64,000 bases of DNA from Candidatus Azambacteria bacterium (GTDB taxonomy: Bacteria > Patescibacteriota > Minisyncoccia > GWC2-36-17 > WO2-46-25), in assembly GCA_016234725.1 (NCBI GenBank), contig JACRAK010000007.1, positions 2,121 to 66,120 on the forward strand. Reading direction: 5' to 3'. The stretch's first letter is position 1; every line of letters begins with the position of its first letter. A program made the translations under genes and the position numbers. Positions 3,262-63,208 of this stretch are shown piece after piece. Below the pieces are notes generated by a model that was given only the letters and a program-made list of their open reading frames with translations, had not been told where the DNA came from and did not search any database.

Positions 3262-3300
3262 ACCAATTCTTACGAGGTCGCACCTCGTAAGAATTGGTTT
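3260..3300. repeat. REP palindrome copy 3 (19-bp arms) overlapping the RAYT stop codon
   Basis: aaaccaattcttacgaggt cgc acctcgtaagaattggttt. Confidence 0.85.
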
Positions 3301-3313
3301 ATTGTAAATAAAA

Positions 3314-3339
3314 GGCCCCACGGCTTTCGCCGTGGGGCC
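3314..3339. terminator. bidirectional rho-independent terminator between RAYT (+) and the giant gene (-)
   Basis: ggccccacgg-ctttcg-ccgtggggcc with A/T runs on both sides. Confidence 0.7.
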
Positions 3340-3420
3340 CTCTCGTTGTGTGGAATATCTGTTCGCAAGCCCTGCTCCCTCCGTTCTCTTCGCTACTCCC
3401 TACTGGCTATCTTCTTGCCC

Positions 3421-10726: not shown

Positions 10727-10757
10727 AATTCCTACGAGGTGCGACCTCGTAGGAATT
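10727..10757. repeat. REP-like palindrome, variant copy 4 (aattcctacgaggt-gcg-acctcgtaggaatt)
   Basis: same acgaggt/acctcgt core as the RAYT REPs with a different loop; sits between the giant-gene start and the HEPN gene stop. Confidence 0.75.
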
Positions 10758-11750: not shown

Positions 11751-11865
11751 TCCTTATTCACATTTCTGACTTCCCTATCATTTCCTTATTCCTCATGAGG
11801 GAAGTCGGATTTCACTCACCAATAAAAAAGCTCCTCGTACATGAGGTGCTTATGCTCTGTCTATT

Positions 11866-11886
11866 CTCTACTCCCTACTCGCTAAT
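11866..11886. repeat. GTAG-repeat family copy (tctactccctactcgctaa) at the yraN 3' end
   Basis: nearly identical to cctactccctactcgctaat at 56786-56806. Confidence 0.6.
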
Positions 11887-12387: not shown

Positions 12388-12418
12388 TTTTAAAGTCCAC
12401 AAAACTTGGGCGGGTGAA

Positions 12419-12452
12419 CGAATGCTGCGTAATACCATTTTACTACGAGCCC
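12419..12452 (-). other. orphan 5' half of tRNA-Ala (positions 1-35, ends ...CAGCATTCG), followed by 31-nt element TTCACCCGCCCAAGTTTTGTGGACTTTAAAA (12388-12418)
   Basis: 34 nt identical to the 5' half of the complete tRNA-Ala. Confidence 0.8.
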
Positions 12453-12483
12453 TTTTAAAGTCCACAAAACTTGGGCGGGTGAA

Positions 12484-12519
12484 CGAATGCCGCGTACTAC
12501 GACTATACTATGAGCCCCC
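12484..12519 (-). other. orphan 5' half of a different tRNA (GGGGGCTCATAGTATAGTCGTAGTACGCGGCATTCG), followed by the same 31-nt element (12453-12483)
   Basis: tRNA-like acceptor, D-arm and anticodon-stem 5' strand ending at TTCG, then an identical junction sequence. Confidence 0.65.
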
Positions 12520-12613
12520 TCTTTTCTTTTAAAACGAAATCATTATAATGCATGCATTGCAATTTGACAACTTCATACTACCAAAATCGTTTTAACGAAA
12601 AAGGAGGTGTCTT

Positions 12614-12982: not shown

Positions 12983-13055
12983 TCCCCTGTTTTCCATTTT
13001 TTGCGTTTCTTTAAACTTCCAGATTCTATTTTCTAGTTTCTAGATTCTGCCTTAA

Positions 13056-13095
13056 TGGTCGGAATGCCGGGAATCGAACCCGGATTACACGCACC
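13056..13095 (-). other. orphan tRNA 3' half with encoded CCA (GTGCGTG-TAAT-CCGGGTTCGATTCCCGG-CATTCCG-A-CCA), preceded by leader TTTAGGCGGGTGAGAGG
   Basis: T-arm identical to the tRNA-Ala T-arm; its acceptor strand has no partner in the adjacent complete tRNA. Confidence 0.65.
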
Positions 13096-13123
13096 TCTCA
13101 CCCGCCTAAATTTCGTCTTGTTG

Positions 13124-13194
13124 TCGGGGTACTCGGAATCGAACCGAGACCACACGCACCCGAAGCGTGCGTACTGCCACTATACTATACCCCG
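13124..13194 (-). tRNA. tRNA-Pro (anticodon CGG)
   Basis: hand-folded: acceptor CGGGGTA/TACCCCG, anticodon stem CACGC/GCGTG, loop TTCGGGT, T-arm CTCGG-TTCGATT-CCGAG. Confidence 0.75.
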
Positions 13195-13450
13195 AAACTT
13201 TGGCGGGCGGGGCGTGCGTAATGCTTCACCCTCCCACCTTTTACACATATTAACTCCTCTAGAAACCAATCACCAATTCTGCTGGACGCTATGCAACTGC
13301 GTGCAGATGTAAAAAGGCGGGAGGGCAAGCTATACCACATTCCGAAATCCCCTATTTTCACACACCCGAAACGTCTTATGCGGGCTTCTCCGATAATGCG
13401 CCTTTTCGGGATATGTTACCATTTCCCGAAAACCCGCGCTATACCTGCTG

Positions 13451-14989
13451 TTACACGCGAAACTTCCTCTGTTCTTCCTCCTCAAGCAACTTAACCTTCT
13501 CCTCGCCTTTCTTTATCATCTCCGAAAGCTCGCTGATAGAAAACTTATCCAACACAACCGCCCGCGCTTCCAGATAATCTTTATCGTTTTTTTGCGGGTC
13601 GTCAAGAACCTCTGAAAACAAGGCATTGAGAATGACCCCCACTTTCGGCCCCGGCGCAATGCCCAATATCCGCATCACCTCGTTTCCGTCAATTTTGAGC
13701 ATTTTAACGGAGATCGGGTCTTTTGACACCTTCTCGACCATATACCTGAAATGGCGCAATTTATAGGGCTCCGCCTTTGGCACGCCCGACCCTATCCTAT
13801 CGGCAAACCGAACATTGACGAGATCGTCCATATTTTCAAGCCCGACATTCCGTACCAGCCGCCGCACGGAAGACGCCGTCACCTCGTCTACATTATAGTA
13901 AAAGAGGTGATAGCGGATGAGTCGCGCGACATCCTCGATTTCCTTATTCGAGAACTTCAATCGGCTCATCGCCTGTGCGGCGATGCGCGCGCCGATCATG
14001 TCGTGGTTGTAAAACGTGGCATTCGGTCCCTCGCCCTGTTTTGCCTTCGGCTTCCCAACGTCATGGAGCAACGCCGCAAATCGCACCGTAAAACTAAACC
14101 CTTGCTCTGCGGCATAGCGGAGCGATTTTAAATTATGCTCATACACATCGAATATATGGTGTTTGTTTTGTGAAACGTGATACCCGTCAAGCAATTCCGG
14201 CAAAACGAAATGCAAGAGCCCGACCTGGCGCAATAGATCGATGCCGTCTGCCGCGTTTTTGCACATGACTATTTTTATGAGTTCGTCGCGGATGCGCTCG
14301 TGTGAAACAACGCGAATGAGAGCGGCGTGTTCCTTAACCGCGACGAGCGTTTGTTCTTCTATGGTAAACTCAAGCTGTGTCGCAAATCGCACCGCGCGCA
14401 CCAAGCGCAACGCGTCTTCATTGAACCGCTCACTTGCGTTTCCAACCGCACGCACTATTTTTTCTTTCAGGTCTTTTTGTCCACCGAATGGATCGATGAT
14501 CGTGAAACGTAAATCCTGAATCTTGGAGCTTGCATCTTGAATCATGGATCTTGAATCCTGGGTTTCGGGTTTCAAGTTTTGAGTTTCAAGATCGAGCGCC
14601 ATCGCGTTGATCGTAAAATCTCTCCGCGCAAGATCTTCTTGTAAATGCGTCGTATATTGCACGCTGTCCGGATGGCGTTTGTCGGAATATGCATTATCGA
14701 CGCGATATGTCGTGATCTGAATTTCCATGCCGTCAATGAACGCGGTCACTGTGCCGAATTTGTTTTCGTAAAAACTTTTGGGGAACACTGCCTGTACTTC
14801 CTCCGGCTTCGCGTTGGTCGCCACGTCCCAATCATTCGGTTCGCGCCCGAGCAACACGTCGCGCACGCAACCGCCGACGGCATACGCCGCAAATCCCGCG
14901 CGCGCCAGCTCGCTCCCGACGTACATCACTTCTTTCGGAATTACCTCATGCATGCGCATACTATAATACGCTAACGCGCTCCGGCGCAA
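13451..14989 (-). CDS. cca: CCA-adding tRNA nucleotidyltransferase (head domain + HD domain), carrying an in-frame ~25-aa repeat-derived insertion
   Basis: GGCVRD...DWD, RDFTINAMA...IIDPFGG and HD-domain HDVGK motifs; insertion LETQNLKPETQDSRSMIQDASSKIQDL between them. Confidence 0.85.
   Translation of the reverse strand: MRRSALAYYSMRMHEVIPKEVMYVGSELARAGFAAYAVGGCVRDVLLGREPNDWDVATNAKPEEVQAVFPKSFYENKFGTVTAFIDGMEIQITTYRVDNAYSDKRHPDSVQYTTHLQEDLARRDFTINAMALDLETQNLKPETQDSRSMIQDASSKIQDLRFTIIDPFGGQKDLKEKIVRAVGNASERFNEDALRLVRAVRFATQLEFTIEEQTLVAVKEHAALIRVVSHERIRDELIKIVMCKNAADGIDLLRQVGLLHFVLPELLDGYHVSQNKHHIFDVYEHNLKSLRYAAEQGFSFTVRFAALLHDVGKPKAKQGEGPNATFYNHDMIGARIAAQAMSRLKFSNKEIEDVARLIRYHLFYYNVDEVTASSVRRLVRNVGLENMDDLVNVRFADRIGSGVPKAEPYKLRHFRYMVEKVSKDPISVKMLKIDGNEVMRILGIAPGPKVGVILNALFSEVLDDPQKNDKDYLEARAVVLDKFSISELSEMIKKGEEKVKLLEEEEQRKFRV
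14511..14590. repeat. tandem ATCTTGAAT-type repeat block lying in-frame inside cca
   Basis: gaatcttggagcttgcatcttgaatcatggatcttgaatcctgggtttcgggtttcaagttttgagtttcaagatcg; related to blocks at 45784-45905 and 46341-46450. Confidence 0.7.
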
Positions 14990-26143: not shown

Positions 26144-27856
26144 ATGCATATTTCTGAGGCGAACCTCAAAAAGATCGTCGTCGCATCGGGCATCATCTCT
26201 GATGCGCAATTTGAAGCGGCGCGGCAGGAAGCGCTGCGGTCAAACCGCACCATCGGCAACGTACTCATCGGCAAAGGAGATATCACGGAAAATTATTTCG
26301 CCGAGATCGTCGCGAACTATTTTGCCGTGCCCATCGTGAATTTCCAGGCCGCGCCGCCCGATGACGCCGCGCTTCACTTGCTCCCCGAACAATTCTCGAA
26401 AGCAAAACGCATCGCGCTGTTTGCCATCGATCATGAGAAAAAAACGGCAAAGCTCGCGATGGAAGACCCGGGCGACCTTAAAACCATCGACCTTGTTGCC
26501 GCAAAATTCGATATGCGCGTTGAGCCGCATCTCGCCACATCGTTATCGATGAAGGTCGCTTTTAAAGAATACAAGAAAGATATTTACAAAGAATTCAACA
26601 CGATCATCGAGGAGTCCATCAAGGAAGCGCTTGCGGCGGGCAACGTCAAAGACATCGGGAAAATGGCCGAGCATGTGCCCATCATCGCCATCACCGACGG
26701 ACTCATGGAGTACGCGGTCGCGCTCGGCGCATCCGATATTCATATCGAACGCCTGCCGGAAAAAGTGCTCGTGCGCTACCGCATCGACGGCATCCTGCGC
26801 GACATCGTGGAACTCCCCAAAGAGATCGACGACGCCATCATCGCCCGCATCAAAATACTTTCAAGCCTCCAGATCGATGTCCACTTCACGCCGCAAGACG
26901 GCCGGTTCAAGTTCAAACTTGAAGACCAATCCATCGACGTACGCGTATCCGTCATGCCCACGTTCTACGGCGAAAAAGTGGTCATGCGCCTCCTCCGCGG
27001 CTCGATCCGTCCTTTGAACCTTGCCGAACTCGGCATATCCGAACGGGACATCGCCACTATCAATGAAGCCATCAAACGGACGTTCGGCATGATCCTCATC
27101 ACCGGCCCGACCGGCTCAGGTAAGACCACCACGCTGTATGCGATACTCCACAAGCTCAATACGCCGACGGTCAACATCGCCACGATCGAAGACCCTATCG
27201 AGTACGACGTCGAGCGCATCAACCAAACACAGGTGAACCCCAAAGCCGGCATCACCTTCGCCAACGGCCTGCGCAGCTTGATGCGCCAGAACCCCGACAT
27301 CATCATGGTGGGGGAGATCCGCGACGAAGAAACCGTTTCTATTTCACTCAACGCCGCGATGACCGGCCACCTTGTGCTTTCCACACTCCACACCAACGAC
27401 GCGCCCACCGCGATCCCGCGGTTCATCGATATGGGCGGCGAGCCGTTCCTTGTGGCAAACACGCTCAATGTCATCATCGCCCAGCGGCTCGTACGCCGCA
27501 TCTGCACCGTCTGCGTTTCAAGCTATACGCCGACACCAGAAGCGAAAGAATCCATGAAAAAACAGCTTGCGCTCTACCATGCCGACCCCGCCCGCATCAA
27601 GATCCCTTCCCAGCTATACAAAGGAAAAGGGTGTCAGGCATGTTCAGGCACCGGCTATTCGGGACAGATCGGGATCTTTGAGGTGCTCAATGTAAGTCCG
27701 CGCATCAGAGAACTTATCAAACCGGGCGTTGCCATCGACCAATTGCGCGCGGTCGCCGAGGAAGAAGGGATGCGCCGCATGTTCGAGGACGGCCTCGCAA
27801 AAGCGGAGGCCGGCGCCACCACCATCGAAGAAGTGTTCAGGGTCATTATGGAGTAA
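26144..27856 (+). CDS. pilB: type IV pilus assembly ATPase PilB (GspE family)
   Basis: GSPII_E N-terminal domain; Walker A GPTGSGKTT; Asp-box MVGEIRD; CxxC...CxxC tetracysteine. Confidence 0.9.
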   Translation: MHISEANLKKIVVASGIISDAQFEAARQEALRSNRTIGNVLIGKGDITENYFAEIVANYFAVPIVNFQAAPPDDAALHLLPEQFSKAKRIALFAIDHEKKTAKLAMEDPGDLKTIDLVAAKFDMRVEPHLATSLSMKVAFKEYKKDIYKEFNTIIEESIKEALAAGNVKDIGKMAEHVPIIAITDGLMEYAVALGASDIHIERLPEKVLVRYRIDGILRDIVELPKEIDDAIIARIKILSSLQIDVHFTPQDGRFKFKLEDQSIDVRVSVMPTFYGEKVVMRLLRGSIRPLNLAELGISERDIATINEAIKRTFGMILITGPTGSGKTTTLYAILHKLNTPTVNIATIEDPIEYDVERINQTQVNPKAGITFANGLRSLMRQNPDIIMVGEIRDEETVSISLNAAMTGHLVLSTLHTNDAPTAIPRFIDMGGEPFLVANTLNVIIAQRLVRRICTVCVSSYTPTPEAKESMKKQLALYHADPARIKIPSQLYKGKGCQACSGTGYSGQIGIFEVLNVSPRIRELIKPGVAIDQLRAVAEEEGMRRMFEDGLAKAEAGATTIEEVFRVIME

Positions 27857-27867
27857 CTCCCAACTAA

Positions 27868-27885
27868 TAACTAACAACTTATAAC
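27868..27885. repeat. left inverted repeat of 4HB cassette 1 (taactaacaacttataac)
   Basis: 17/18 match to the reverse complement of 28292-28310. Confidence 0.7.
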
Positions 27886-27897
27886 AAATAACACACT

Positions 27898-28257
27898 GTG
27901 GAGGCTTTCCGATTCAAAAACTGGAGCGTTTATAAAGAAGCAAAGGCCTTATTCATGTCTGTCGTAAAAATAACACACGAGCTACCCAGTGAATACAGAT
28001 ACACAATAGGCGACCAAATGATCCGCTCGGGGCTATCAATCGTTTTAAACATTGCGGAAGGAAGCGGTAAAGAATCGGACAAGGAATTGAACAGATATTT
28101 CAACATCGCCATGGGTTCGACCAATGAAACGCTTGCGGTTATTGATGTCCTTAGCGATCTTCGTATAGCGGATGAAAAGAAAATGGAAGAAGCAGAAAAG
28201 TTATGCGTAAGCATTTCGAAACAGCTTGGCGGATTTAAAAAGAAGTTAAAAAAATAA
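27898..28257 (+). CDS. four-helix-bundle protein (23S rRNA intervening-sequence protein family, Avd-like)
   Basis: FKNWSVYKEAKAL...SGLSIVLNIAEGSGKESDKELNRYFNIAMGSTNET. Confidence 0.8.
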   Translation: MEAFRFKNWSVYKEAKALFMSVVKITHELPSEYRYTIGDQMIRSGLSIVLNIAEGSGKESDKELNRYFNIAMGSTNETLAVIDVLSDLRIADEKKMEEAEKLCVSISKQLGGFKKKLKK

Positions 28258-28291
28258 GTCCACGTAAGTTATCAGTTAATGGTTATAAGTT

Positions 28292-28310
28292 TTTAGTTAA
28301 CGGCCATGCC
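28292..28310. repeat. right inverted repeat of 4HB cassette 1 (gttataagtttttagttaa)
   Basis: reverse complement ttaactaaaaacttataac. Confidence 0.7.
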
Positions 28311-29517
28311 CTTATTCACATACGTCGCATCGAAAAAAGACGGCACGATTGTAGAAGAAGAGATCGAAACAAAAGACCAGGCGTCCGTCGTCGCCTATCT
28401 GGAAAAACACGACTACTTTCCGGTTTCTGTTAAGGAAAAAAAGGTGTATCGCTCTCTTTCTATCTCATTTTCAAGCAAAATAACCCTGCTTGAAAAAGTG
28501 ACATTCGCCCGCAATCTCGCGCTCATGATAAAGTCGGGCATCGGCATGTCGGAGGCGGTCGCCATTCTCCTTGAAGACGCCGAGCGGGCGCCTCTCCGAA
28601 AAGTTCTTTCAAAAATAAAAGCGGACCTCGAAAAAGGGCTTCAGCTTTCCGCTGCGCTTGAAACATTCCCTTCGCAATTTTCTACCGTGTTCATCAGCCT
28701 CCTGCGAGCGGGAGAGACATCGGGAAATCTTGAAATGTCACTGCTTCAAATAGCCACCCAGCTTAAAAAAGAGAACGATCTCAAAAAGAAAGTGCTGTCT
28801 GCCATGGCGTATCCCGCGATCCTTCTTTCACTTGCGTTCGGCGTCGTGGCACTGCTAGTCACCGTGGTGCTTCCGCGCGTCAGCAAAATATTCACGCAGG
28901 CGCATGTACAACTGCCGCTCCTCACCCGCATCTTGCTTGGCATTTCCGATTTTGTCGCGAGCCAATTTTTCGCAACGCTCGCGATCATTGCGGGCATCGT
29001 CGCGATCATCGCGCTTGCCCGCAGGTCATCTGCCGGCAAGCGCGCCTTGCAGGTCCTTTTCATCAAAACACCGCTTATCGCGCCGCTCATGAAAAAGATC
29101 GCGCTGGTCCGTTTCACCGGCACCCTCCATTCGCTTATGAAAGCAGGCGTGCCGCTCACCAAAGCGCTTGAAATCACCGCGCAGGCGATCGGCAACGCAT
29201 CATACCGGCAGGTACTTTTAGATATCGCAAAAAACGAGATATCTAAAGGCATTTCATTCGGCATGGCGCTCAAACAGCGACCGGAATATTTCCCGCGGCT
29301 CACGTCAAGCATGATCGTCATAGGGGAAAAATCGGGAAACCTTGAAAACGTACTTGAAAACTTGAGCTCCTTTTACGAGGAAGAGGTGGACGGCACGATC
29401 AAGTCGCTTATCACTATTTTAGAGCCGGCATTGTTGCTCTGCATCGGCCTCATCATCGGCGCGATCGCGCTCTCTATCGTCATGCCGATCTATCAGATGA
29501 TCAATGTGGTGCGGTAG
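28306..29517 (+). CDS. pilC: type IV pilus inner-membrane platform protein PilC (GspF family)
   Basis: two T2SS-F repeats and 3 TM segments; 403 aa. Confidence 0.85.
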   Translation: MPLFTYVASKKDGTIVEEEIETKDQASVVAYLEKHDYFPVSVKEKKVYRSLSISFSSKITLLEKVTFARNLALMIKSGIGMSEAVAILLEDAERAPLRKVLSKIKADLEKGLQLSAALETFPSQFSTVFISLLRAGETSGNLEMSLLQIATQLKKENDLKKKVLSAMAYPAILLSLAFGVVALLVTVVLPRVSKIFTQAHVQLPLLTRILLGISDFVASQFFATLAIIAGIVAIIALARRSSAGKRALQVLFIKTPLIAPLMKKIALVRFTGTLHSLMKAGVPLTKALEITAQAIGNASYRQVLLDIAKNEISKGISFGMALKQRPEYFPRLTSSMIVIGEKSGNLENVLENLSSFYEEEVDGTIKSLITILEPALLLCIGLIIGAIALSIVMPIYQMINVVR

Positions 29518-29527
29518 GGTTATAACA

Positions 29528-29556
29528 GCGAGTAGAATGTAGCGAGTAGGGAGTAG
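29528..29556. repeat. left inverted repeat of 4HB cassette 2, GTAG-repeat family (gcgagtagaatgtagcgagtagggagtag)
   Basis: 15-mer gcgagtagaatgtag is the exact reverse complement of part of 29971-29992. Confidence 0.8.
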
Positions 29557-29616
29557 AAGAAATGCAAAAGAGAAGCAAAAATCAGAACTTAGGGAGTAGG
29601 GAAAAGAGCGTGAGAA

Positions 29617-30465
29617 ATGAAAACGCAAACATATAAAGATCTGATAGTGTGGCAGAAATCCAAAAAACTTGTTTTGGAGATCTATGCTCTTGCCGAGCAA
29701 TTTCCTCCCAGCGAAAAATTCGGGATCACCTCCCAGCTTACGCGCGCGGCGATCTCCATCCCGTTAAACATCGCTGAAGGGTATAGACGAAGGGGGGATA
29801 AGGAAAGAGCGCAGTTTTTTTCTATTGCTTTTGGTTCGGCCGCAGAAGTCGAAGCATTGATCGATATCTGTAAAGATTTGCACCTTTTCAAAAATTGTAA
29901 TTTCACCGCCAGCGAGAATCTTTTAGACGAAGTATTGCGCATGCTAAATGTTTTCATAAAAAATTCTTCCCTACATTCTACTCGCTACTCGCCGCCTTCT
30001 CCACAAAAGGGTTTCACTATTCTCGAACTTATCGTTGTACTCGGTATTTTCGCCGTCATTGCCGGCGTTGCGGCGGTACAACTTGCCAACTTCCAGCGCG
30101 GCACCGTGCTTGAAAGCACATCAAAAGACGTCGTGAGCGCGTTGCGCTTGGCGCACGACAAAGCAATGCTCGGAGAGGACGGTGACAGCAACGGACAAGG
30201 TGATGCGTGGGGCATCCGTTTTGCCAACAGCACAACAGATACGTATGCTTCTTTTTATGGTGCAGCGTACAATGTAAACAATGTGAAAGAAACGGTTTAT
30301 CTTTCTCCGCCGCTCGCATTCAGCGCGCCCACTGAAGGAAACAATACCGATGTGATATTCACCAAGCTTTCAGGGACAACGACTTCGGCGAACATCACCA
30401 TCGGTGACAACGGCCAGATAAAGACGGTCACCGTGGACGCGTCGGGAAGGATCAGCTCAAATTAA
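29617..30465 (+). CDS. composite ORF: four-helix-bundle (IVS-family) protein (residues 1-~118) reading through, with no stop, into a pseudopilin (from ~PQKGFTILELIVVLGIF). The pilin part may start at the internal Met at 29941 (24-aa leader)
   Basis: N-terminal part DLIVWQKSKKLVLEIY...TSQLTRAAISIPLNIAEGYRRR...AFGSAAEVEAL = 4HB family; C-terminal part has a class III signal (G/FTILELIVV); the junction coincides with the right IR of the cassette. Confidence 0.65.
   Translation: MKTQTYKDLIVWQKSKKLVLEIYALAEQFPPSEKFGITSQLTRAAISIPLNIAEGYRRRGDKERAQFFSIAFGSAAEVEALIDICKDLHLFKNCNFTASENLLDEVLRMLNVFIKNSSLHSTRYSPPSPQKGFTILELIVVLGIFAVIAGVAAVQLANFQRGTVLESTSKDVVSALRLAHDKAMLGEDGDSNGQGDAWGIRFANSTTDTYASFYGAAYNVNNVKETVYLSPPLAFSAPTEGNNTDVIFTKLSGTTTSANITIGDNGQIKTVTVDASGRISSN
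29971..29992. repeat. right inverted repeat of 4HB cassette 2 (ctacattctactcgctactcgc), in-frame inside the composite ORF (encodes LHSTRYS)
   Basis: reverse complement gcgagtagcgagtagaatgtag. Confidence 0.8.
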
Positions 30466-30483
30466 ACATTTGACATTTAACAT

Positions 30484-31197
30484 ATGACATTTGACGATAA
30501 AAATTCAAATGTCAGATACCGGATGTTACATATGAAAAGTCAAAAGTCAAAAGTCAAACGTTGGGAGAAAGGTTTCTCCCTTTTTGAAGTCCTCATCGCC
30601 ATTTCCGTTTTTGCCGTTATCGGCGTCGTCGCGGCACAGTTGATCGGCATTTCTCTGCAATCCGACAAAACAAGCGGGCAAAAGACCGTCGCGCTCCAGC
30701 TTACGCAAGAAACCGCTGAAGCGCTCGATTCGCTTGCTGGAGAGTCGTGGCAGAACATCTACGGCCTTTCCAAGGGATCCGCGAACCATTATTACACCGT
30801 AGTCAGCGGCAGTAAGTGGGCGACTTCCACCGGCGACGAACTGCTCACGATAAACGCCGGTTCATACAAGCGGTATTTCTATATAGAAAATGTGTCCCGT
30901 AGCAGCGGAGGCGCCATCGTCGTTTCCGGAGGCAACAACGACCCCTCTACCCAAAAAGCTACGGTGGTCGCCTCATGGCAAAACGACGGGGGCGTGGATA
31001 TCGGCTTCGCCACAACGACAAAATATCTCATGCGCGCGCGCAACACCGCCGCCACGCAAACTTCATGGGCATATTCCGGACAAGGATCGAATCCTTCTTC
31101 CGGCGAAACAGCGGACTTCAACAGCGACTACGCATCGGATGCCGGCAACATCAGCACCTCCACCCCCTCGGGAAGCTTGACCCTTACACAACAATAA
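30484..31197 (+). CDS. pseudopilin / minor pilin (prepilin-type N-terminal domain); true start probably an internal Met (MLHMKSQ... or MKSQ...)
   Basis: KG/FSLFEVLIAISVFAVIGVV. Confidence 0.75.
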   Translation: MTFDDKNSNVRYRMLHMKSQKSKVKRWEKGFSLFEVLIAISVFAVIGVVAAQLIGISLQSDKTSGQKTVALQLTQETAEALDSLAGESWQNIYGLSKGSANHYYTVVSGSKWATSTGDELLTINAGSYKRYFYIENVSRSSGGAIVVSGGNNDPSTQKATVVASWQNDGGVDIGFATTTKYLMRARNTAATQTSWAYSGQGSNPSSGETADFNSDYASDAGNISTSTPSGSLTLTQQ

Positions 31198-45783: not shown

Positions 45784-45905
45784 CATGAAACATAGATCGT
45801 GAAACTTGAAACATGAAACATCAGGGCTTGAAACATATAACATATAACTTGAAACTGAGCGATTCAGGATTCACGTTTCAGGATTCACGTTTCAGGATTC
45901 ATGAA
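45784..45905. repeat. intergenic repeat block (cttgaaacatgaaac ... 3x caggattcacgttt ... aggattcatga) upstream of and overlapping the PilX-like gene start
   Basis: shares start and end motifs with 46341-46450 and the in-frame block in cca. Confidence 0.7.
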
Positions 45906-46340
45906 CGGGGCGCCGCTCTGCTTGCAACCACGCTTGCCGTTATCATCATCCTGCTTGCGATGGGTCTTTCCATGACATCATCGGGCCTGTTTGAAGGGCT
46001 TATGTCGCAGGCGCAAAGCGACTCGCGCGAGGCGTTCGCGGCCGCGCAATCGGGCGTCAAAGACGCTTATTTGCGCATCGCGCGCAATAAGGGCTTTTCT
46101 TCCGCGGGATATTATATCCCGTCCGATCCCTCCAATTGCACGCTCAACAGCTCTTCTTTGTGCACAAAAGTGATCGTGGAAAAAGACACCGCCGCATCAT
46201 GTTCCCAGTCGATCAGCGCCGGACAGGACTGCCTTATCGTTGCCGGAACGCTCAAAAATACGACGCGAACGATAGAGGTCATTTTGAATGTCAATACAAC
46301 TAATGGTAAAATAAGCGAAGTGTTGTGGAAGGAAATATAG
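45813..46340 (+). CDS. PilX-like minor pilin (non-canonical prepilin N-terminus ERGAALLATTLAVIIILLAMGL); start codon uncertain
   Basis: hydrophobic N-terminal helix after an ERG motif; pilus-cluster context. Confidence 0.55.
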   Translation: MKHQGLKHITYNLKLSDSGFTFQDSRFRIHERGAALLATTLAVIIILLAMGLSMTSSGLFEGLMSQAQSDSREAFAAAQSGVKDAYLRIARNKGFSSAGYYIPSDPSNCTLNSSSLCTKVIVEKDTAASCSQSISAGQDCLIVAGTLKNTTRTIEVILNVNTTNGKISEVLWKEI

Positions 46341-46450
46341 GTCTTGAAACATGAAACGTAAAACTTATAACTCAAAACTTAAAGCTTCAAGACTCGAGTT
46401 CAAGGTTTATGACACATGTTTCAAGTTTCACGATTTAAGATTCAAGATTC
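46341..46450. repeat. intergenic repeat block (cttgaaacatgaaac ... ttcaagattcaagattcatgga) upstream of pilM
   Basis: related to 45784-45905. Confidence 0.7.
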
Positions 46451-47932
46451 ATGGATTTAGCACAACTTTTTAAGCCGGTTGAAAAGATCGTCGGCATGGA
46501 GATCGCGCACGGGCGCGTGTGCGCGGTGTTGCTTGAAAAAGACAAAAAGGGCGTTGTTACCGGCACGAAAAAGGAAGCGGTGATCCCCCATGATATCGTC
46601 GCGGAGGACGGCACGGTACTCGACAAGCAAAAGCTCGCCCTAGCGCTCAAAACGATCTGGCACGCGGGAAAGGATGTTCTCAGATCAAAATATGTCATCG
46701 TCGCGCTCCCTTCGGCGCCGGTGTTCACCGATATCGTCAGATTCCCCAAGGTCACCCAAGAACAACTGAAAGAGGCGATGGAGCTGCATATGGCGACGAA
46801 AACATCGTTTCCCATCGACACGAATGATATTTATTACGACTGGCAGCCGCTCACCGCGCATAATGTGTATCATGAGGATGTTCTTTTGAGCTTCGCAAAA
46901 CAGCCGTATATCCGCGACTTCGCGGAAGCGTGCGAAGCGGCGGGGCTTGAGCCGCTCGCGTTCGAAACGCCGCAACCCGCGACCCTGCGCGCGATCACCA
47001 ACTTTGAGAAAAAAACCGGTTTGCTTATCCGCGTCTCGCAGGAATGCGCGGAATTTTCCATTGCTGCCGGCGCCGACCTATTCTTCACTCGCACCATACC
47101 GCTTCCTCCTTCGTACGATCTTGAAACGCTCAAAAACGCTCTTGCGACCGAAGCGACGCATGCGCTCAACTATTACGCGACGGAAAACCCCGAAGAAGCG
47201 CCCGTGACGACCGCTGTTCTTCTTACGCATGTGCCGCAAAAACAAGAGCTTGCCGCCCATCTTCGCACAGCGCTCGGCATCGAAATTGCAGATGCGCGGT
47301 TCGCTCATGATACCGCCATAGGGGACTCGTGCGCGGCGGCGTTCGGCGCTGCGTTGCGCGGGCTTGTCCGCAGAGAGGAGGACACGCTCATCAGCCTTTT
47401 GCCGATCGGCACCGAAGAAGCATATCGCAAACGGCGCTTTCTCGCTTATGTATCGCTCTGGTCTGATATCATCAATGCAACCGCGCTCCTCCTTGTCGTT
47501 CTGTTTGGCGCGACATGGTTTTTCGTCAATATTGCCTACACGAATGCGGTCCGCCAGACGACCCAGCTGAAAGCGGCATCGGGCGCAAGCACAAAGAGCG
47601 ACGAACTGGAACAAAACGCGCAGCGCTTCAATGCGGCGGTCGGGCGCATCACAGCGGCAAATGATACCATCATGCCATGGTCTCTTTTCATAGAAAAAAC
47701 ACTTCCCTCATTCACCAAAAACGACATCACCATGGAAAGCGTTTCATTTCCCTCATTCCGTTCCGACGGATCGCTTCAGATCACGGCGAAAACGCGCGCC
47801 AGCGCGATCGCATTCCGTAAAGCGCTGGAAGAAGATCCTCTGTTTTCCGAAGTGCACATGCCCTTCCTCAGCGTGACGCAAAAAGAGAACATCCTCCTTA
47901 CCATTACTTTCCGCTTCGCACCACAACCATGA
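46451..47932 (+). CDS. pilM: type IV pilus assembly protein PilM (actin-like ATPase fold) fused to a PilN-like TM/periplasmic segment
   Basis: N-terminal 350 aa PilM-like; TM at LLLVVLFGATWFFVNIAY then a periplasmic tail. Confidence 0.7.
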   Translation: MDLAQLFKPVEKIVGMEIAHGRVCAVLLEKDKKGVVTGTKKEAVIPHDIVAEDGTVLDKQKLALALKTIWHAGKDVLRSKYVIVALPSAPVFTDIVRFPKVTQEQLKEAMELHMATKTSFPIDTNDIYYDWQPLTAHNVYHEDVLLSFAKQPYIRDFAEACEAAGLEPLAFETPQPATLRAITNFEKKTGLLIRVSQECAEFSIAAGADLFFTRTIPLPPSYDLETLKNALATEATHALNYYATENPEEAPVTTAVLLTHVPQKQELAAHLRTALGIEIADARFAHDTAIGDSCAAAFGAALRGLVRREEDTLISLLPIGTEEAYRKRRFLAYVSLWSDIINATALLLVVLFGATWFFVNIAYTNAVRQTTQLKAASGASTKSDELEQNAQRFNAAVGRITAANDTIMPWSLFIEKTLPSFTKNDITMESVSFPSFRSDGSLQITAKTRASAIAFRKALEEDPLFSEVHMPFLSVTQKENILLTITFRFAPQP

Positions 47933-56376: not shown

Positions 56377-56745
56377 ATGGAACGATCACGCATCACGCAC
56401 TTCAAAGAGCAATTGTTGAAAGAAAAAGAACAGCTTGAGGGCGACTTGAACGAATCCGCGACAAAAGACGACGGCCACTGGGAAACAAAGCGCCAGCCCT
56501 TCGACGAAGCGGGGCGATTTGATGAAGAAGAGCGCGCCGATGAAGTGGAGGAATACGAAAATGAAACTTCCATCGACCGCCAGCTTGAAACGCGCCTCGA
56601 GGACATCACTGGTGCGCTTCATAAAATAGACGCCGACACGTACGGCATCTGCGAACGATGCGGGAAGGCGATCGATGAAACGCGCCTTACCGCAAACCCC
56701 GCGGCGCACACGCATGTTCACTGCAACACAGCGAGTAGAACGTAG
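56377..56745 (+). CDS. DksA/TraR-family C4 zinc-finger protein
   Basis: C-terminal YGICERCGKAIDETRLTANPAAHTHVHC; acidic coiled-coil N-terminus. Confidence 0.7.
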   Translation: MERSRITHFKEQLLKEKEQLEGDLNESATKDDGHWETKRQPFDEAGRFDEEERADEVEEYENETSIDRQLETRLEDITGALHKIDADTYGICERCGKAIDETRLTANPAAHTHVHCNTASRT

Positions 56746-56800
56746 CGAGTGGCGAGTAAAAAACATCATGCGCGCCTACTTCCTACTCCCTACTCGCTAA
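56730..56800. repeat. GTAG-repeat palindromic element (gcgagtagaacgtagcgagtggcgagta ... cctacttcctactccctactcgct)
   Basis: left arm overlaps the last codons of the DksA-like ORF; right arm lies in the comM leader. Confidence 0.7.
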
Positions 56801-56820: not shown

Positions 56821-58350
56821 ATGCCTGCAAAAGTTTTCTCTGCGACGCTCTGTGGGATCGACGCGAACATTATCACGGTGGAGACCGACATTTCGCACGG
56901 TCTCCATTGTTTTACCATTGTCGGCCTGCCGGACCAATCCGTCGGGGAGTCAAAGGACCGCGTCAACGCCGCGCTGAAGAATTCGGGATTTCAATACCCT
57001 AAAAAGACCAATCAAAAGATCGTCGTCAATCTCGCGCCTGCCGACGTTAAAAAAGAAGGATCGTCATACGACCTCCCTATTGCGCTCTCCTATCTTGCCG
57101 CATCCGACCAGCTTCGCTTTGACCCGAAAAAGAAACTTTTTGTAGGGGAGCTCGCGCTTGATGGAGGCGTGCGCCCCGTCCACGGCGCTCTTGCGATCGT
57201 CGCGCAGGCAAAGCGCGACGGATTTTCAGCTGTCGTTCTGCCGGCACAAAACGCAGAGGAAGCGCGCCTGATCTCGGGCATCACCATTATACCGGTCGCC
57301 ACTATTGCGGAGTGCGCCGACTATCTTTTGCACGGCACCGTCCCGGAACACGAAAGCACGCGTGAAGCCGACACGCTGCCCGCAAACGAAGCGCGCGATG
57401 CCGATGCGCTTGATTTCGCGCATATCAAAGGACAAAACCAAGCCAAGCGCGCCCTTGAGATCGCGGCGGCGGGCGGCCACAATGTGCTTTTATCCGGCCC
57501 GCCGGGAACGGGAAAAACAATGCTCGCAAAAGCGACCGTTTCCATCCTTCCTGAAATGGGAGAGGAAGAGATCATTGAAACAACAAAGATATACAGCATC
57601 GTCGGCCTGCTTGGCGCGCGCCATGCGATGACCGAACGCCCGTTCCGCTCGCCGCATCATTCCGCGTCCGACATCGCGCTCATCGGAGGAGGAAAGACCG
57701 CAAAGCTCGGCGAGATAACGCTTGCACACAACGGCGTGCTGTTTCTGGACGAATTCCCGGAGTTCCCGCGCGATGTCATTGAGGCATTGCGCCAACCGCT
57801 TGAAGATAAAACGATCACGGTGTCGCGCGCGCACGGCTCTTTTTCCTACCCCGCCAATTTCATTCTCATCGCCACCAAAAACCCGTGCCCCTGCGGGTAT
57901 TACCGTTCTGCCCAGCGCGAATGTTCCTGTTCGATGGCAACCATCATCAGATATCAGAAAAAGATCTCCGGCCCGATCGCCGACCGCATCGACATCCATG
58001 TTGAAGTGCCCTCAGTCACCTATGAAAAGCTCACCGAGGAATCCTCTGACCGCGAGAGCGCGCGCATACAAGCGCGCGTGTCGCGCGCGCGAGAGCTCCA
58101 GCGCGAACGGTTTGCAAAAACAGCGATCGCGCGCAACGCCGACATGTCCGCCGCGCACATAAAAAAGCACTGTTCGCTGGACAGCGCTTCGCTTGCGGTC
58201 CTTAAAAACGCGATGGAAAAATTAAATCTTTCTGCGCGCGCGTTCCACAAGATCATCAAACTTGCGCGCACGATCGCAGACCTTGAAGAAGCGCCGCACA
58301 TCCTCCCCACGCACATCGCGGAAGCCCTGCAATACCAACAAAGAACGTAG
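56821..58350 (+). CDS. comM: YifB/ComM-family Mg-chelatase-like AAA+ ATPase; start moved to MPAKVF
   Basis: ChlI-like N-terminal domain, Walker A GPPGTGKTM, C-terminal ComM domain. Confidence 0.85.
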   Translation: MPAKVFSATLCGIDANIITVETDISHGLHCFTIVGLPDQSVGESKDRVNAALKNSGFQYPKKTNQKIVVNLAPADVKKEGSSYDLPIALSYLAASDQLRFDPKKKLFVGELALDGGVRPVHGALAIVAQAKRDGFSAVVLPAQNAEEARLISGITIIPVATIAECADYLLHGTVPEHESTREADTLPANEARDADALDFAHIKGQNQAKRALEIAAAGGHNVLLSGPPGTGKTMLAKATVSILPEMGEEEIIETTKIYSIVGLLGARHAMTERPFRSPHHSASDIALIGGGKTAKLGEITLAHNGVLFLDEFPEFPRDVIEALRQPLEDKTITVSRAHGSFSYPANFILIATKNPCPCGYYRSAQRECSCSMATIIRYQKKISGPIADRIDIHVEVPSVTYEKLTEESSDRESARIQARVSRARELQRERFAKTAIARNADMSAAHIKKHCSLDSASLAVLKNAMEKLNLSARAFHKIIKLARTIADLEEAPHILPTHIAEALQYQQRT

Positions 58351-58452
58351 AACATAGCGAGTAGAACGTAGGACAAACACCAAAAAACAAAAACGGGGCT
58401 TCCACCCGTTTTTTTCTACTCGCTACCCCCTACTCCCTACGTTCTACATTCT
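58346..58452. repeat. GTAG-repeat palindromic element enclosing a bidirectional terminator (hairpin aaacggg-gcttcca-cccgttt at 58390-58417)
   Basis: arms gtagaacatagcgagtagaacgtagg / cctacgttctac...ctactcgctac. Confidence 0.75.
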
Positions 58453-58460
58453 GTGCGCCC

Positions 58461-59783
58461 CTAGCGCACCAAGTACGGATTCTTCGCGCCGCGCACCTCA
58501 AAGTGCAAGTGGCACCCCGTTGATCTGCCCGCGCCTTCCATGCGCACGCGCCTGCCGTCGATAACCTCGAAGCCGCCGCCCATCGTCGCGATCATGCTTC
58601 CTTGTTTCACTTCCTGCCCGTTGAACGCGAAGACATCTTTCAAATGCGCATAGAGCGTCACCACGCCGTTGGGGTGTTTGATTATGATATTATTGCCGTA
58701 ACCGGAATACACCGCCGCGCCGGTGCGCGCGCGGGATTCCGTGGTTCGTACCGCCGTCACCACGCCGTCTGCGGCCGCATAGATCGCCGTGCCGCACTGG
58801 TTACCGATGTCGGCGCCGTTATTCCCGTGGAGACCCTGCGTCTTCCTGCCGCTGGTCGGGAATATGAAATATTTATTGGAAACCGGCGATTGTTTTGCCG
58901 ACGCGACCGCGGTTGCCGGCTTCGGCGTGCGGATCGGCTGGGGCATTCTGCCGTCAGGAAGGATCACAACGTCGTCCACGCGGAGCGCACCGTCTGCGGG
59001 GAGATGATTATACGCAATGATGTCTTCTTCGTTCGCGCGGAACTGCTGCGCCAGTGACGCCACCGTATCGCCCTTCTTTACCGTATGCCTCACGCCATCC
59101 ACCGGCAAGATCTCGAGCCGCTGCCCTTCTTTTATGTAATCAGCGGACGACAGGTTATTCGCCCACAACAGGGTCGTGGGGGCAACGCCAAACATAGTGG
59201 CGATCTCTGAGATCGTGTCGCCCTCCTCTACCATATAATAGACGATCTGGTCGCGGGAGGTCTGGTTTTGGTCTATCGTCAGCGGCGCAAGGTCGGCGAC
59301 AAGTGCGTCATCGGCGGTCGTCGGATAGGCATATTCGTCTATTTGTTCTTCGTCGATACCTCCTCTCCCCTCGCCCATGCTATCATACACTGCCTCTTGA
59401 GAAATATGTCCCTGAGACGCCCTCACGGACACTTCGGTATAGCTATTCCCCGCGTTTTGCTGTATCGCCGCGAGCGTTATCGCCGAAAGCTTGCCGTTTG
59501 CGTCCGCAATATTGAAGAAAGACGCAAAAAACAGCATAATAACAAAAAACGCCGAGAAAACGTTGCTTTTTGCGAGGTCGAGTATATAAAAAAATCTATT
59601 CCCGGTAGGGAGTACAGGGAATTTCGTAGTAAGCGCATGGATCCCTCTCCGCAACGCAGAGAGGAAATTGGAGATCATGGTATGAATCGGTGTAAGATGA
59701 CTGTTCGTTCGCCCTTCTCGCCTCTTTTCTATGACCGCATACATAATACCACCGCGAGGGCCAAAGGTCAATCGTTCCAACAA
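58461..59783 (-). CDS. LysM + M23 (lysostaphin-like) peptidoglycan endopeptidase with N-terminal TM
   Basis: two LysM blocks (YYMVEEGDTISEIA, HTVKKGDTVASLA); M23 H.H motif HLHFEVR. Confidence 0.8.
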   Translation of the reverse strand: MLERLTFGPRGGIMYAVIEKRREGRTNSHLTPIHTMISNFLSALRRGIHALTTKFPVLPTGNRFFYILDLAKSNVFSAFFVIMLFFASFFNIADANGKLSAITLAAIQQNAGNSYTEVSVRASQGHISQEAVYDSMGEGRGGIDEEQIDEYAYPTTADDALVADLAPLTIDQNQTSRDQIVYYMVEEGDTISEIATMFGVAPTTLLWANNLSSADYIKEGQRLEILPVDGVRHTVKKGDTVASLAQQFRANEEDIIAYNHLPADGALRVDDVVILPDGRMPQPIRTPKPATAVASAKQSPVSNKYFIFPTSGRKTQGLHGNNGADIGNQCGTAIYAAADGVVTAVRTTESRARTGAAVYSGYGNNIIIKHPNGVVTLYAHLKDVFAFNGQEVKQGSMIATMGGGFEVIDGRRVRMEGAGRSTGCHLHFEVRGAKNPYLVR

Positions 59784-62294: not shown

Positions 62295-63208
62295 CCCCGC
62301 GGCCGAACAAGCGGCTCGGCCAAAATTTCCTCGTCAACCGCGGGATCATCGAGAAGATCATCGCCGCGGCCGCGCTTGAAAAAACAGATACCGTACTCGA
62401 GGTCGGCCCCGGGCACGGCGCGCTCACGCTTGAACTCGCTCAAAAAGCGGAGAGGGTCATCGCAATAGAAAAAGACAGGGGACTCGCAGAAATCCTGCGC
62501 GCAAAATTGGCTGAAAAAAAGATTGCGAACGTCGAAATTATCGAAGGCGACATCCTCGTGTTTCTTTCTACTCGCTACTCGCTACTGCCTACTCGCTACT
62601 GCGTCGTCGCCAATATCCCGTACTATCTCACCTCCGCGCTCATCCGCCAATTGCTTGAACTCGCGCATCCGCCGGAGCGCATCATTCTCACCATTCAAAA
62701 AGAAGTCGCCCAGCGCATCGCGGCGCACGGCGGTAAAGAAAGCATTCTTTCGCTCGCGGTGAAATTTTACGCGGACGCACAGATCCTTTTTTACGTTTCG
62801 CGCGGCTCGTTCTCGCCATCACCCAACGTGGACTCCGCGGTGATAGAAATAATCCCGCGAAAAGAAAAGCAGGCCGTCGCGCCCGAAGTGTTTTTTACCG
62901 TCGTAAAAGCGGGGTTCTCGGCGCCGCGCAAAAAACTACTCGGCAATCTTGCAAAAGGATTATCCATAGAAAAAGAGAAAATTGCGGCGATGTTCGCACG
63001 GCTCGGCGTGGATGCGGATGTCCGCTCCGAGCAGCTTTCGCTCGCCCAATGGCTCGCCCTTGCCCCCGCACTTATGTATGGGCGTGAGGGCTTGCCCCGT
63101 AGAAGCACTTCGGCTGCCGCAAAGCGGCAAAAAGACGTAGTCAGCCGAAGTCCTCTATCGGGGCTTGCGCGATCAAGTAAAAAAGATATACTGAAAGCAA
63201 ATAATTAA
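62291..63208 (+). CDS. rsmA: 16S rRNA (adenine1518/1519-N6)-dimethyltransferase RsmA/KsgA, with GTAG-repeat-derived codons in-frame and a ~25-aa C-terminal extension over a hairpin element
   Basis: RLGQNFLVN...VLEVGPGHGALT...VVANIPYY. Confidence 0.8.
   Translation: MTPRPNKRLGQNFLVNRGIIEKIIAAAALEKTDTVLEVGPGHGALTLELAQKAERVIAIEKDRGLAEILRAKLAEKKIANVEIIEGDILVFLSTRYSLLPTRYCVVANIPYYLTSALIRQLLELAHPPERIILTIQKEVAQRIAAHGGKESILSLAVKFYADAQILFYVSRGSFSPSPNVDSAVIEIIPRKEKQAVAPEVFFTVVKAGFSAPRKKLLGNLAKGLSIEKEKIAAMFARLGVDADVRSEQLSLAQWLALAPALMYGREGLPRRSTSAAAKRQKDVVSRSPLSGLARSSKKDILKANN
62563..62610. repeat. GTAG-repeat copy lying in-frame in rsmA (tctactcgctactcgctactgcctactcgctactgc, encoding STRYSLLPTRYC)
   Basis: same ctactcgctactcg motif as the intergenic copies. 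Confidence 0.7.

Follow-up and report, generated by a model that had tools for sequence, protein, structure and literature searches.

A repeated heptamer at gene ends in Azambacteria

The stretch of DNA analyzed here, referred to as the window, comprises 64,000 nt of a contig from Candidatus Azambacteria, which belongs to the candidate phyla radiation (CPR; Patescibacteria). Short GTAG repeats are scattered over it. They lie at the ends of genes for PilC, a DksA-like protein, ComM, YraN, an M23/LysM peptidase, and a 2424-aa surface protein, in the leader of a type IV pilin gene, and inside the gene for RsmA (Table 1). A preliminary description took these repeats for a dispersed family with a palindromic core that can lie inside coding sequence, resembling Rickettsia palindromic elements (RPEs). 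Every copy that it listed was found in place when checked against the sequence. The arrays are not an assembly artefact, because the same sequence recurs in an independent Logan assembly (L001).

The repeats are indeed a dispersed family. The octamer CTACTCGC occurs 13 times in 64 kb versus 1.14 expected, and 13 copies were reached in none of 100 shuffles; thus, within the window the motif is far commoner than chance. A 14-mer with at most two mismatches is found 12 times in the window versus 0.28 expected. The core, however, is not a palindrome. The unit consists of seven bases, GTAG plus three variable bases, and two to five of these non-palindromic units form an array. Consecutive CTAC (or GTAG) tetramers are spaced by 7, 14, 21, or 28 bases and almost never otherwise, a pattern that control tetramers lack. 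Period-7 tandem arrays number 13 in the window versus 0.25 expected, and no comparable excess is seen there for periods of 4-6 or 8-12, including those multiples of three that coding sequence could tolerate.

Nine arrays in the window have the GTAG/CTAC core; they begin at positions 3393, 11861, 29528, 29971, 56730, 56775, 58347, 58416, and 62568. When read in one orientation, these nine arms share a multi-unit consensus of ~28 nt, roughly GTAGAAY-GTAGCGA-GTAGGGA-GTAGAA. They are therefore copies of one family rather than independent products of slippage. A lone octamer at 32440 and a match with two mismatches at 55269 stand isolated and are probably due to chance. Arrays with other unit sequences, which we call flavours, are located at 13024-13048, 14505-14590, 27855-27894 with 28264-28301, 30466-30495, 45786-45903, and 46344-46453. 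An Rfam search of the window returned three tRNAs only, with no rRNA and no family for the array elements.

Arrays occur singly or as inverted pairs. The three GTAG-family pairs are all inverted, as the preliminary description had proposed, and each runs 5'-GTAG arm...CTAC arm-3'. Their loops are mutually unrelated, and consist of a short spacer, an intrinsic terminator, or a gene encoding a four-helix-bundle (4HB) protein. The GTAG arrays are one flavour of a wider class of heptamer hairpins. Their closest architectural counterpart is the 4HB-bearing intervening sequence (IVS) of 23S rRNA, but they lie in a protein-coding context. We consider it probable, although well short of certain, that the GTAG repeats are the arms of IVS-like heptanucleotide-array hairpins that act at transcript ends and as stops in three reading frames.

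Table 1. Heptamer arrays and associated features of the window (aa, amino acids; ORF, open reading frame; UTR, untranslated region; L numbers denote compared contigs; a slash within a peptide replaces the mark at the prepilin cleavage motif)
Feature	Position	Strand	Context
Solo two-unit array GTAGGGA-GTAGCGA	3393-3406	-	15 nt after stop (3421-3423) of 2424-aa surface-protein ORF
GC-rich hairpin with T-tract	3314-3340		~50 nt beyond the 3393 array, after 2424-aa ORF; read by eye
Array TTAGCGA-GTAGGGA-GTAGAGA-ATAG	11861-11884	-	First unit is TAG stop of YraN/UPF0102 gene
Solo TTCTAGN array	13024-13048		Just 3' of split tRNA-Pro fragment
Sister-flavour hairpin, CTTGAAA... / ...TTCAAG	14505-14590	-	In frame in CCA-adding enzyme gene
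Second 4HB cassette, sister flavour	27855-28301	+	Between PilB and PilC
Left GTAG arm, four units	29528-29556	+	11 nt after PilC stop codon; outer arm of 4HB cassette
Stranded former pilin start, ATG CAA AAG AGA AGC..., MQKRSKNQN... (ATGCAAAAGAGAAGC...)	29562-29636	+	Compare MKQKT... leaders in L210, L207, L208
4HB gene (PF05635/TIGR02436; PDB 2GSC family)	29617-29970	+	"23S rRNA IVS protein"/S23p
Right CTAC arm, three units	29971-29992	+	In frame as ...LHSTRYS... in pilin leader, before KG/FTILEL
Solo ACATTTG array	30466-30495		Begins at last base of pilin stop codon
Sister-flavour hairpin, CATGAAA / GTTTCAG	45786-45903	+	Start codon and long leader of PilX-like pseudopilin (ORF 45813-46340)
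Sister-flavour hairpin, TGAAACN / GTTTCAN	46344-46453	+	Between pseudopilin gene and PilM-like gene
Left arm GTAGAAC-GTAGCGA-GTGGCGA-GTAA	56730-56759	+	Encodes ..TASRT end of DksA-like protein; TAG stop 56743-56745
Right arm CTACTTC-CTACTCC-CTACTCG	56775-56799	+	24 nt upstream of comM start codon
Left arm GTAGAAC-ATAGCGA-GTAGAAC-GTAGG	58347-58372	+	First unit is ComM TAG stop (58348-58350)
Intrinsic terminator (A-tract, GC stem, T-tract)	58389-58415		Between both arms, convergent comM and M23/LysM peptidase genes
Right arm, five CTAC units	58416-58450	+	On minus strand, GTAG array in 3' UTR of M23/LysM peptidase gene (stop 58461-58463)
Five-unit CTAC array, STRYSLLPTRYC	62568-62602	+	Inside RsmA coding sequence; no partner arm

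Stop codons and terminators

Of the nine GTAG-family arrays, six are oriented so that GTAG lies on the sense strand of a gene that ends at or just before the array. Three of these arrays supply the TAG stop codon itself, from the first unit in ComM and YraN and from a later unit in the DksA-like gene. The remaining three lie 3' of the stop codons of PilC, the M23/LysM peptidase, and the 2424-aa surface protein. Since seven is not divisible by three, a run of three GTAG units places a TAG in each reading frame; in the CTAC orientation every frame is open.

The 3'-end arrays are located between a stop codon and a terminator-type hairpin in all four cases. Two of these hairpins, the one after the 2424-aa ORF and one with a T-tract after the YraN array, were read by eye and were missed by a simple terminator scan. 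The arms that enclose the terminator between the convergent comM and peptidase genes (58347-58450) have folding z scores of -6.9 on the plus strand and -7.6 on the minus strand, and the A- and T-tracts flanking the terminator suggest that it is bidirectional. The pair at 56730-56799 has a 15-nt loop, with a predicted dG of -31.1 kcal/mol and a z score of -6.0 versus shuffles. Its left arm encodes the last residues of the DksA-like protein and its right arm precedes comM, as had been described.

The same junctions were compared with those on syntenic contigs of related Azambacteria, whose proteins are 61-90% identical to those of the window. Arrays are present at the DksA/ComM and ComM/M23 junctions in every related species, with the NTAG core kept and the spacers different. 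In L202 the units are CTAGAAT throughout; at another orthologous junction, PilB/PilC, L210 carries CATGAAA arrays. The ComM stop codon is the TAG of the first unit in four of four species (the window and three relatives), and the ComM/M23 arms enclose a terminator in the window and in L202, L204, and L206. The DksA-like gene of the relatives ends with ...C-stop. In the window that stop has been lost and the gene ends six codons later at the TAG of the array, so here the capacity of the array to serve as a translational backstop is at work. The arms of the orthologous ComM/M23 hairpins gave no clean signal of compensatory changes.

Cassettes with 4HB genes at pilin junctions

The third GTAG-family pair flanks a 4HB gene between PilC and a type IV pilin gene. 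The encoded protein matches PF05635 (E = 1.7e-35), TIGR02436 (E = 1.4e-33), and PDB 2GSC (XCC0516; E = 7.6e-18), which was crystallized with five chains, and it is related to Avd, a protein of diversity-generating retroelements. The 4HB gene separates the former pilin start (29562) from the pilin body, and an inner partial arm, TTAGGGA-GTAGGGA (29589-29602), lies inside the remnant of that start. The gene has no stop codon of its own: ORF 29617-30465 crosses the CTAC arm in frame and continues into the pilin (...QKG/FTILELIVV). To judge from this reading frame, either a 128-residue 4HB "leader" would be cut off by prepilin peptidase, or the pilin would start within the ORF, at an ATG at 29941. 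In both the minimum-free-energy and the centroid folds of 29515-30000, the two arms of this cassette pair with each other.

The second cassette has a left arm of the AACTAAT type (27855-27894), a 4HB gene (27898-28254), and a right arm composed of TAAGTTA/TCAGTTA/TTAGTTA (28264-28301). In addition to these two instances in the window, 4HB genes are found between arms in L068, L116, and L208.

Both junctions vary among relatives. At PilB/PilC, the site is empty in L207 and L211 (a stop codon, 1-2 nt, and a start codon); the window and L208 have a 4HB cassette there, and L210 has a hairpin without an ORF, its arms being of the CATGAAA type. At PilC/pilin, the site is empty in L211 and carries the GTAG-armed 4HB cassette in the window. 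The hairpin of L210 at this second junction is again ORF-less and provides the pilin with its start codon and a longer leader, and the hairpin site holds a gene for a Fic-domain protein in L207 (5292-6344) and L208 (5299-6351). Because the Fic gene occupies the site of the 4HB gene of the window, the hairpin loop accepts different cargo. Comparison with the empty sites (L207 and L211) revealed no visible target-site duplication at either junction, the sequences being too diverged for this to be certain.

Arrays within coding sequences

The comparison of orthologues with and without the element gives opposite answers for two genes. The CCA-adding enzyme is longer by 17-23 residues (about 23 in the window) where a sister-flavour hairpin lies between NAMAL and IIDPF. 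This hairpin is absent from L220 (85% identical) and from more distant homologues, and L221 has a CATGAAA version. Those units that would place TGA in the frame used are mutated. The hairpins in pilin genes likewise lengthen leader peptides, compared with the empty site in L211.

In RsmA, by contrast, the segment has the same length in 14 orthologues (61-84% identity), and so the array is not an insertion. The DNA of the orthologues carries a five-unit heptamer array at the same place, in two unrelated flavours that are CTACTCG-like and GTTTCAA-like (encoding VSSFKFHVLSY). The occurrence of two flavours at one site implies that constraint or copying operates at the level of the nucleic acid rather than the peptide. 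A candidate explanation is gene conversion, with other arrays of the genome as donors. As far as sequence comparison goes, in-frame colonization is a property of the class, but not of the RsmA copy for which it had been proposed. The in-frame CTAC copies do encode S-T-R-Y-S-like peptides (RsmA, STRYSLLPTRYC; pilin leader, LHSTRYSPPS), as noted previously.

The solo TTCTAGN array adjoins a tRNA-Pro(CGG) gene on the minus strand that is seemingly split, with a 3' half at 13053-13095, ending at 13053, and a 5' fragment at about 13330-13346. An intact second tRNA-Pro(CGG) resides between the fragments (13123-13194); L220 has one uninterrupted gene there. Upstream of tRNA-Ala, also on the minus strand (12388-12520), are tandem partial tRNA 5' halves, each ending near the anticodon and followed by TTCACCCGCCCAAGTTTTGTGGACTTTAAAA. 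In L220, a comparable tRNA 5' half is followed by a long insert of unrelated sequence.

Arrays and 4HB genes in other phyla

Genomes were scanned, one per species, for five consecutive CTACNNN units, a pattern specific to the CTAC core, and at least 120 loci were obtained. Among the matches listed, arrays are found in Acidobacteriota, Bacteroidota, Cyanobacteria, Chloroflexota, Planctomycetota, Gemmatimonadota, Proteobacteria, Firmicutes, and CPR. Also among these matches, GTAG is constant within arrays while the spacer is variable, and the GTAG arm comes first in every close pair seen (about 25). A 4HB gene lies within 8 kb of only three or four of the at least 120 loci selected for arrays.

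A second sample consisted of 80 metagenomic 4HB loci that were picked regardless of repeats, with an alignment of two sequences as the query; they represent one 4HB subclade, 41-56% identical to the query. Arrays were scored within 120 bp of the gene, against a background of 0.025 per 135 bp. A period-7 array is present upstream in 41 of 76 loci, downstream in 41 of 75, and on both sides in 29 of 71, and arrays are ~20-fold enriched beside 4HB genes relative to background. The YAG arm comes first in 37 pairs and the reverse order occurs in none. The units fit the consensus N-Y-A-G-K-K-N (GTAGTGA, TTAGGGG, TCAGGGT, TTAGTTT, and others). Both arms of a locus are always of one flavour, and further arrays in the same loci have the flavour of the cassette in 5 of 10 cases versus about 10% for unrelated loci. 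Among eight annotated 4HB/S23 genes on plasmids of cultured organisms (cyanobacteria, Riemerella, Gemmatirosa), six or seven are flanked by arrays. Examples are found in Anabaena sp. 90, Nostoc punctiforme, Geminocystis, Picosynechococcus, and Riemerella, several of them between cas genes. The association is asymmetric: 4HB genes usually lie within array hairpins, and most arrays have no 4HB gene nearby.

Some loci have further features. Array-flanked 4HB genes reside in CRISPR-cas operons in L212, L214, and L216 (plasmids of Picosynechococcus PCC 7003, Anabaena sp. 90, and Pseudanabaena galeata), once between cas10/cmr2 and cmr3 and twice between cas6 and cas4. The arrays flanking the gene in L216, AAAGCTA x16 and AAAGCCA x10, are direct and not inverted. 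In Pyrinomonadaceae, ORF-less GTAGACA/TGTCTAC hairpins (L059, 4976-5034; L067, 4385-4458; L072, 1883-1942) share a loop module of ~58 nt (GGCTCCGC...CTGA...GAAGNTTTTT). The CTAC arm comes directly after this module and is succeeded by a ribosome-binding site and a start codon; the module may function as a leader. Arrays of TTTAGGG or TCAGGGT flank some 4HB cassettes (L184, 1422-1476; L199, 1424-1449; L161, 93-146). TTTAGGG is the repeat sequence of plant-type telomeres, and such arrays could form G-quadruplexes.

Relation to known repeat classes

The 23S IVSs of the type found in Coxiella, Leptospira, Brucella, and Xanthomonas have terminal inverted repeats that form a long stem, and the loop may hold a PF05635 ORF. 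The window elements have the same stem-forming inverted termini and, in the cassettes, PF05635 in the loop. The S23p ORF of the Coxiella IVS has three or four tandem GACAGAT heptamers upstream of it, in a number that varies among strains; pairing of the IVS termini gives a stem of 28 bp, and cleavage by RNase III takes place at the first heptamer (PMC4990558). GACAGAT, which makes up the 5' arm, fits N-Y-A-G-N-N-N. The location is different, since IVSs reside in helix 25 or helix 45 of 23S rRNA and the window elements lie between or inside protein-coding genes. Moreover, many copies in the window are ORF-less, and a pilin gene is joined in frame to one of the cassettes.

The second relative is the large group of heptanucleotide simple sequence repeats (SSRs), which include GGGAATC and GGGGAYT (Rehm et al. 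2015), TAACTGA (MacGregor 2015), and the short tandemly repeated repetitive (STRR) sequences of Calothrix and Anabaena. They too are mostly intergenic seven-base tandems that are oriented relative to genes and form convergent inverted pairs. One orientation has stops in three frames and the other is translatable, with occasional copies in ORFs in the open orientation. Xanthomonas has about 180 GGGAATC arrays, which include 70-75 convergent pairs, and Nostoc has GGGGAYT arrays (PMC4692102). The TAACTGA direct repeats of Beggiatoaceae, Cyanobacteria, and Bacteroidetes are mostly located beside gene starts, have stops in all three frames in one orientation, and lie within ORFs only in the other (PMC4679880). 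TAACTGA is the reverse complement of a TCAGTTA-type unit that we find flanking 4HB genes. According to the summaries of Mrazek 2007 in PMC4679880 and PMC4692102, heptamers are the most over-represented class of long SSR in many bacteria, a fact described as unexplained. The GTAG arrays share the period-7 excess, the gene-boundary location, the fixed orientation, and the inverted pairs. They differ in their GTAG core, their occurrence in CPR, their conservation at orthologous sites with turnover of flavour, and their presence in housekeeping genes. The papers on heptanucleotide SSRs propose G-quadruplexes or translational regulation and do not mention 4HB or IVS genes. A literature search, with most subscription journals outside its reach, found a general link between heptamer repeats and 4HB genes in no source; only the description of the Coxiella IVS has both.

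Alternative explanations

Several features suggest that the arrays might instead be cognate binding sites of the 4HB protein. Under this explanation, a pentameric S23p/Avd-like ring would be wrapped by YAG triplets spaced seven bases apart, much as TRAP binds (G/U)AG repeats. The array and 4HB gene would then form a selfish mobile cassette or a post-transcriptional regulator, with ORF-less hairpins as non-autonomous or target copies. The strong association across phyla is consistent with this, as is the richness in 4HB genes of the heptamer-rich taxa Xanthomonas, Nostoc, and Bacteroidetes. The crystal with five chains agrees with a description of XCC0516 as a homopentameric toroid (PMC4990558). 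Flavour also points in this direction: the first 4HB cassette shares the GTAG flavour with ORF-less hairpins of the same genome, the two 4HB paralogues of the window have arms of different flavours, and arrays within a metagenomic locus match the cassette (5 of 10 versus about 10%). However, common descent alone can give a shared flavour, and about 35-45% of the 4HB genes have no array at the threshold used. Because only three or four of the at least 120 array loci have a 4HB gene within 8 kb, any action of the protein would have to be in trans. We regard this putative binding function as unlikely.

Less probable still is the interpretation given in the preliminary description, in which an RPE-like selfish element spreads by in-frame insertion into genes. 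The likeness is real for the coding copies, which are hairpin repeats that add peptide to the CCA-adding enzyme and to pilin leaders; the enzyme insertion is absent from L220 and distant homologues, and the CTAC orientation is open in three frames. Yet the RsmA copy leaves protein length unchanged, and most copies are heptamer arrays at gene boundaries. RPEs have a consensus of about 100-150 bp, whereas the GTAG arms share only ~28 nt and enclose unrelated loops; the hosts, too, belong to unrelated phyla. The two junctions for which empty sites are available display no visible target-site duplication, at a sequence divergence that leaves this uncertain; the same holds for a comparison with transposable elements of the miniature inverted-repeat type (MITEs), whose inverted arms the window elements do possess. 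The strongest kinship of the GTAG repeats is not with RPEs and their fixed long palindromic consensus, but with the 4HB/23S-IVS cassettes and heptanucleotide repeats.

GTAG is the hallmark 5' motif of repetitive extragenic palindromic (REP) sequences. The arrays might therefore be REP elements or REP doublets forming hairpins (REPINs), mobilized by a Y1 transposase like the REP-associated tyrosine transposases (RAYTs) and encoded in the window at 2512-3261. As in REPs and bacterial interspersed mosaic elements (BIMEs), there are inverted hairpin doublets in intergenic positions, often at convergent gene ends near terminators, and genome-specific populations. The transposase ORF matches Y1_Tnp (PF01797, E = 1.4e-8), and its best NCBIfam match is REP_Tyr_transpos, although with a score of 38 bits versus a cut-off of 80. 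REPs are imperfect palindromes of 20-40 nt with a 5' GTAG, unlike the tandem heptamer, whose unit is no palindrome and whose architecture recurs with non-GTAG cores (TTAG, TCAG, CATGAAA). The transposase ORF is flanked not by GTAG arrays but by TACGAGGTCGCACCTCGTA hairpins. For this reason and because of the low score, we reject the RAYT link, and a REP origin of the arrays appears very unlikely. The TACGAGGTCGCACCTCGTA hairpins (2526-2544, 2722-2740, 3271-3289, and 10733-10751) flank and interrupt the transposase ORF in frame, with the fourth copy in front of the giant 2424-aa ORF; this family gives eight strand-hits versus 0.01 expected.

We give least credence of all to the arrays being functionless, immobile by-products of replication slippage: heptamers are the leading long SSR class in many bacteria, as PMC4679880 and PMC4692102 report from earlier work, the number of Coxiella units varies among strains (PMC4990558), and unit sequences turn over fast between relatives, but slippage does not account for the strict polarity (37 pairs versus 0 in the 4HB set, and GTAG first in about 25 close pairs among the matches listed), the matched inverted arms, the multi-unit strings common to different loci, the persistence of arrays at the same junctions across species with 61-90% protein identity, the conservation of the YAG core while the spacer varies, or the ~20-fold enrichment beside 4HB genes.

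A proposed role at transcript ends

The reading that we favor, IVS-like hairpins at transcript ends that double as three-frame stops, can be outlined as follows. The element consists of a 5' arm, (N-TAG-NNN)n, and a 3' arm that is its complement, present alone or paired, in the order GTAG...CTAC on either strand. At or just after a stop codon, the GTAG arm would close all three frames and so act as a backstop to translation before the terminator. Transcription of both arms would yield a long, interrupted double-stranded RNA stem that could serve as a 3'-end or processing structure. By analogy with 23S IVSs, such a stem is a plausible substrate for RNase III. The arrays are presumably copied or homogenized within a genome, which would give rise to genome-specific flavours at orthologous sites; slippage with gene conversion, or a mobilizing activity, are candidate routes of spread. 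Because the CTAC orientation is open in every frame, copies would survive in coding sequence.

The Correia elements (Neisseria miniature insertion sequences, NEMIS) offer a working analogy only. They are co-transcribed inverted-repeat mini-elements of Neisseria whose hairpins are cut by RNase III, altering mRNA stability. Correia elements are defined sequences of 100-150 bp with terminal inverted repeats and TA target duplications, whereas the window elements are heptamer arrays with variable loops.

A number of observations weigh against this model. The solo arrays at 3393, 11861, and 62568 have no predicted structure on folding, and arms in the window pair imperfectly, in that GTAG cores pair and many three-base spacers do not. 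Efficient termination at a terminator enclosed by two arms would leave the transcript with the 5' arm alone, and hence with no long stem. The RsmA array with its two alternative flavours is not accounted for by a model acting at the level of RNA. Polarity is opposite to the usual order in the PilB/PilC cassette of the window and its orthologue in L208; this one exceptional lineage means that a YAG arm in first position is not a universal rule. Neither is a stop codon in the 5' arm, which the flavours TCAGGGT and TCAGTTC of other genomes lack; a stop in three frames is therefore not the universal reason for the repeats. Finally, a test of array orientation based on raw ORFs (at least 120 loci) carries little information, in that spurious ORFs inflate every class and no ORF can run into a GTAG array without ending in it.

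Implications

To our knowledge, there is no accepted explanation for the excess of heptanucleotide repeats in bacteria, and we know of no function for the PF05635 4HB family, although it is very widespread. The association described above joins these two old puzzles. We put forward only tentatively, as a proposal that could well prove wrong, that arms and 4HB gene together constitute an unrecognized class of hairpin cassette that spans phyla. The 23S IVSs would be its rRNA-resident case, and the ORF-less hairpins and the bacterial heptamer excess would represent non-autonomous copies or targets. If a 4HB pentamer binds period-7 YAG repeats, then flavour would co-evolve with the resident 4HB paralogue.

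Three points are worth following, namely the linkage of heptamer arrays to 4HB genes in general, the strictness of arm polarity, and the conserved arrays inside housekeeping genes. For CPR bacteria there is also a practical consequence. The arrays provide genes with stop and start codons and proteins with leader peptides and in-frame segments, and therefore gene ends and insertions in these genomes should be read with the arrays in mind.

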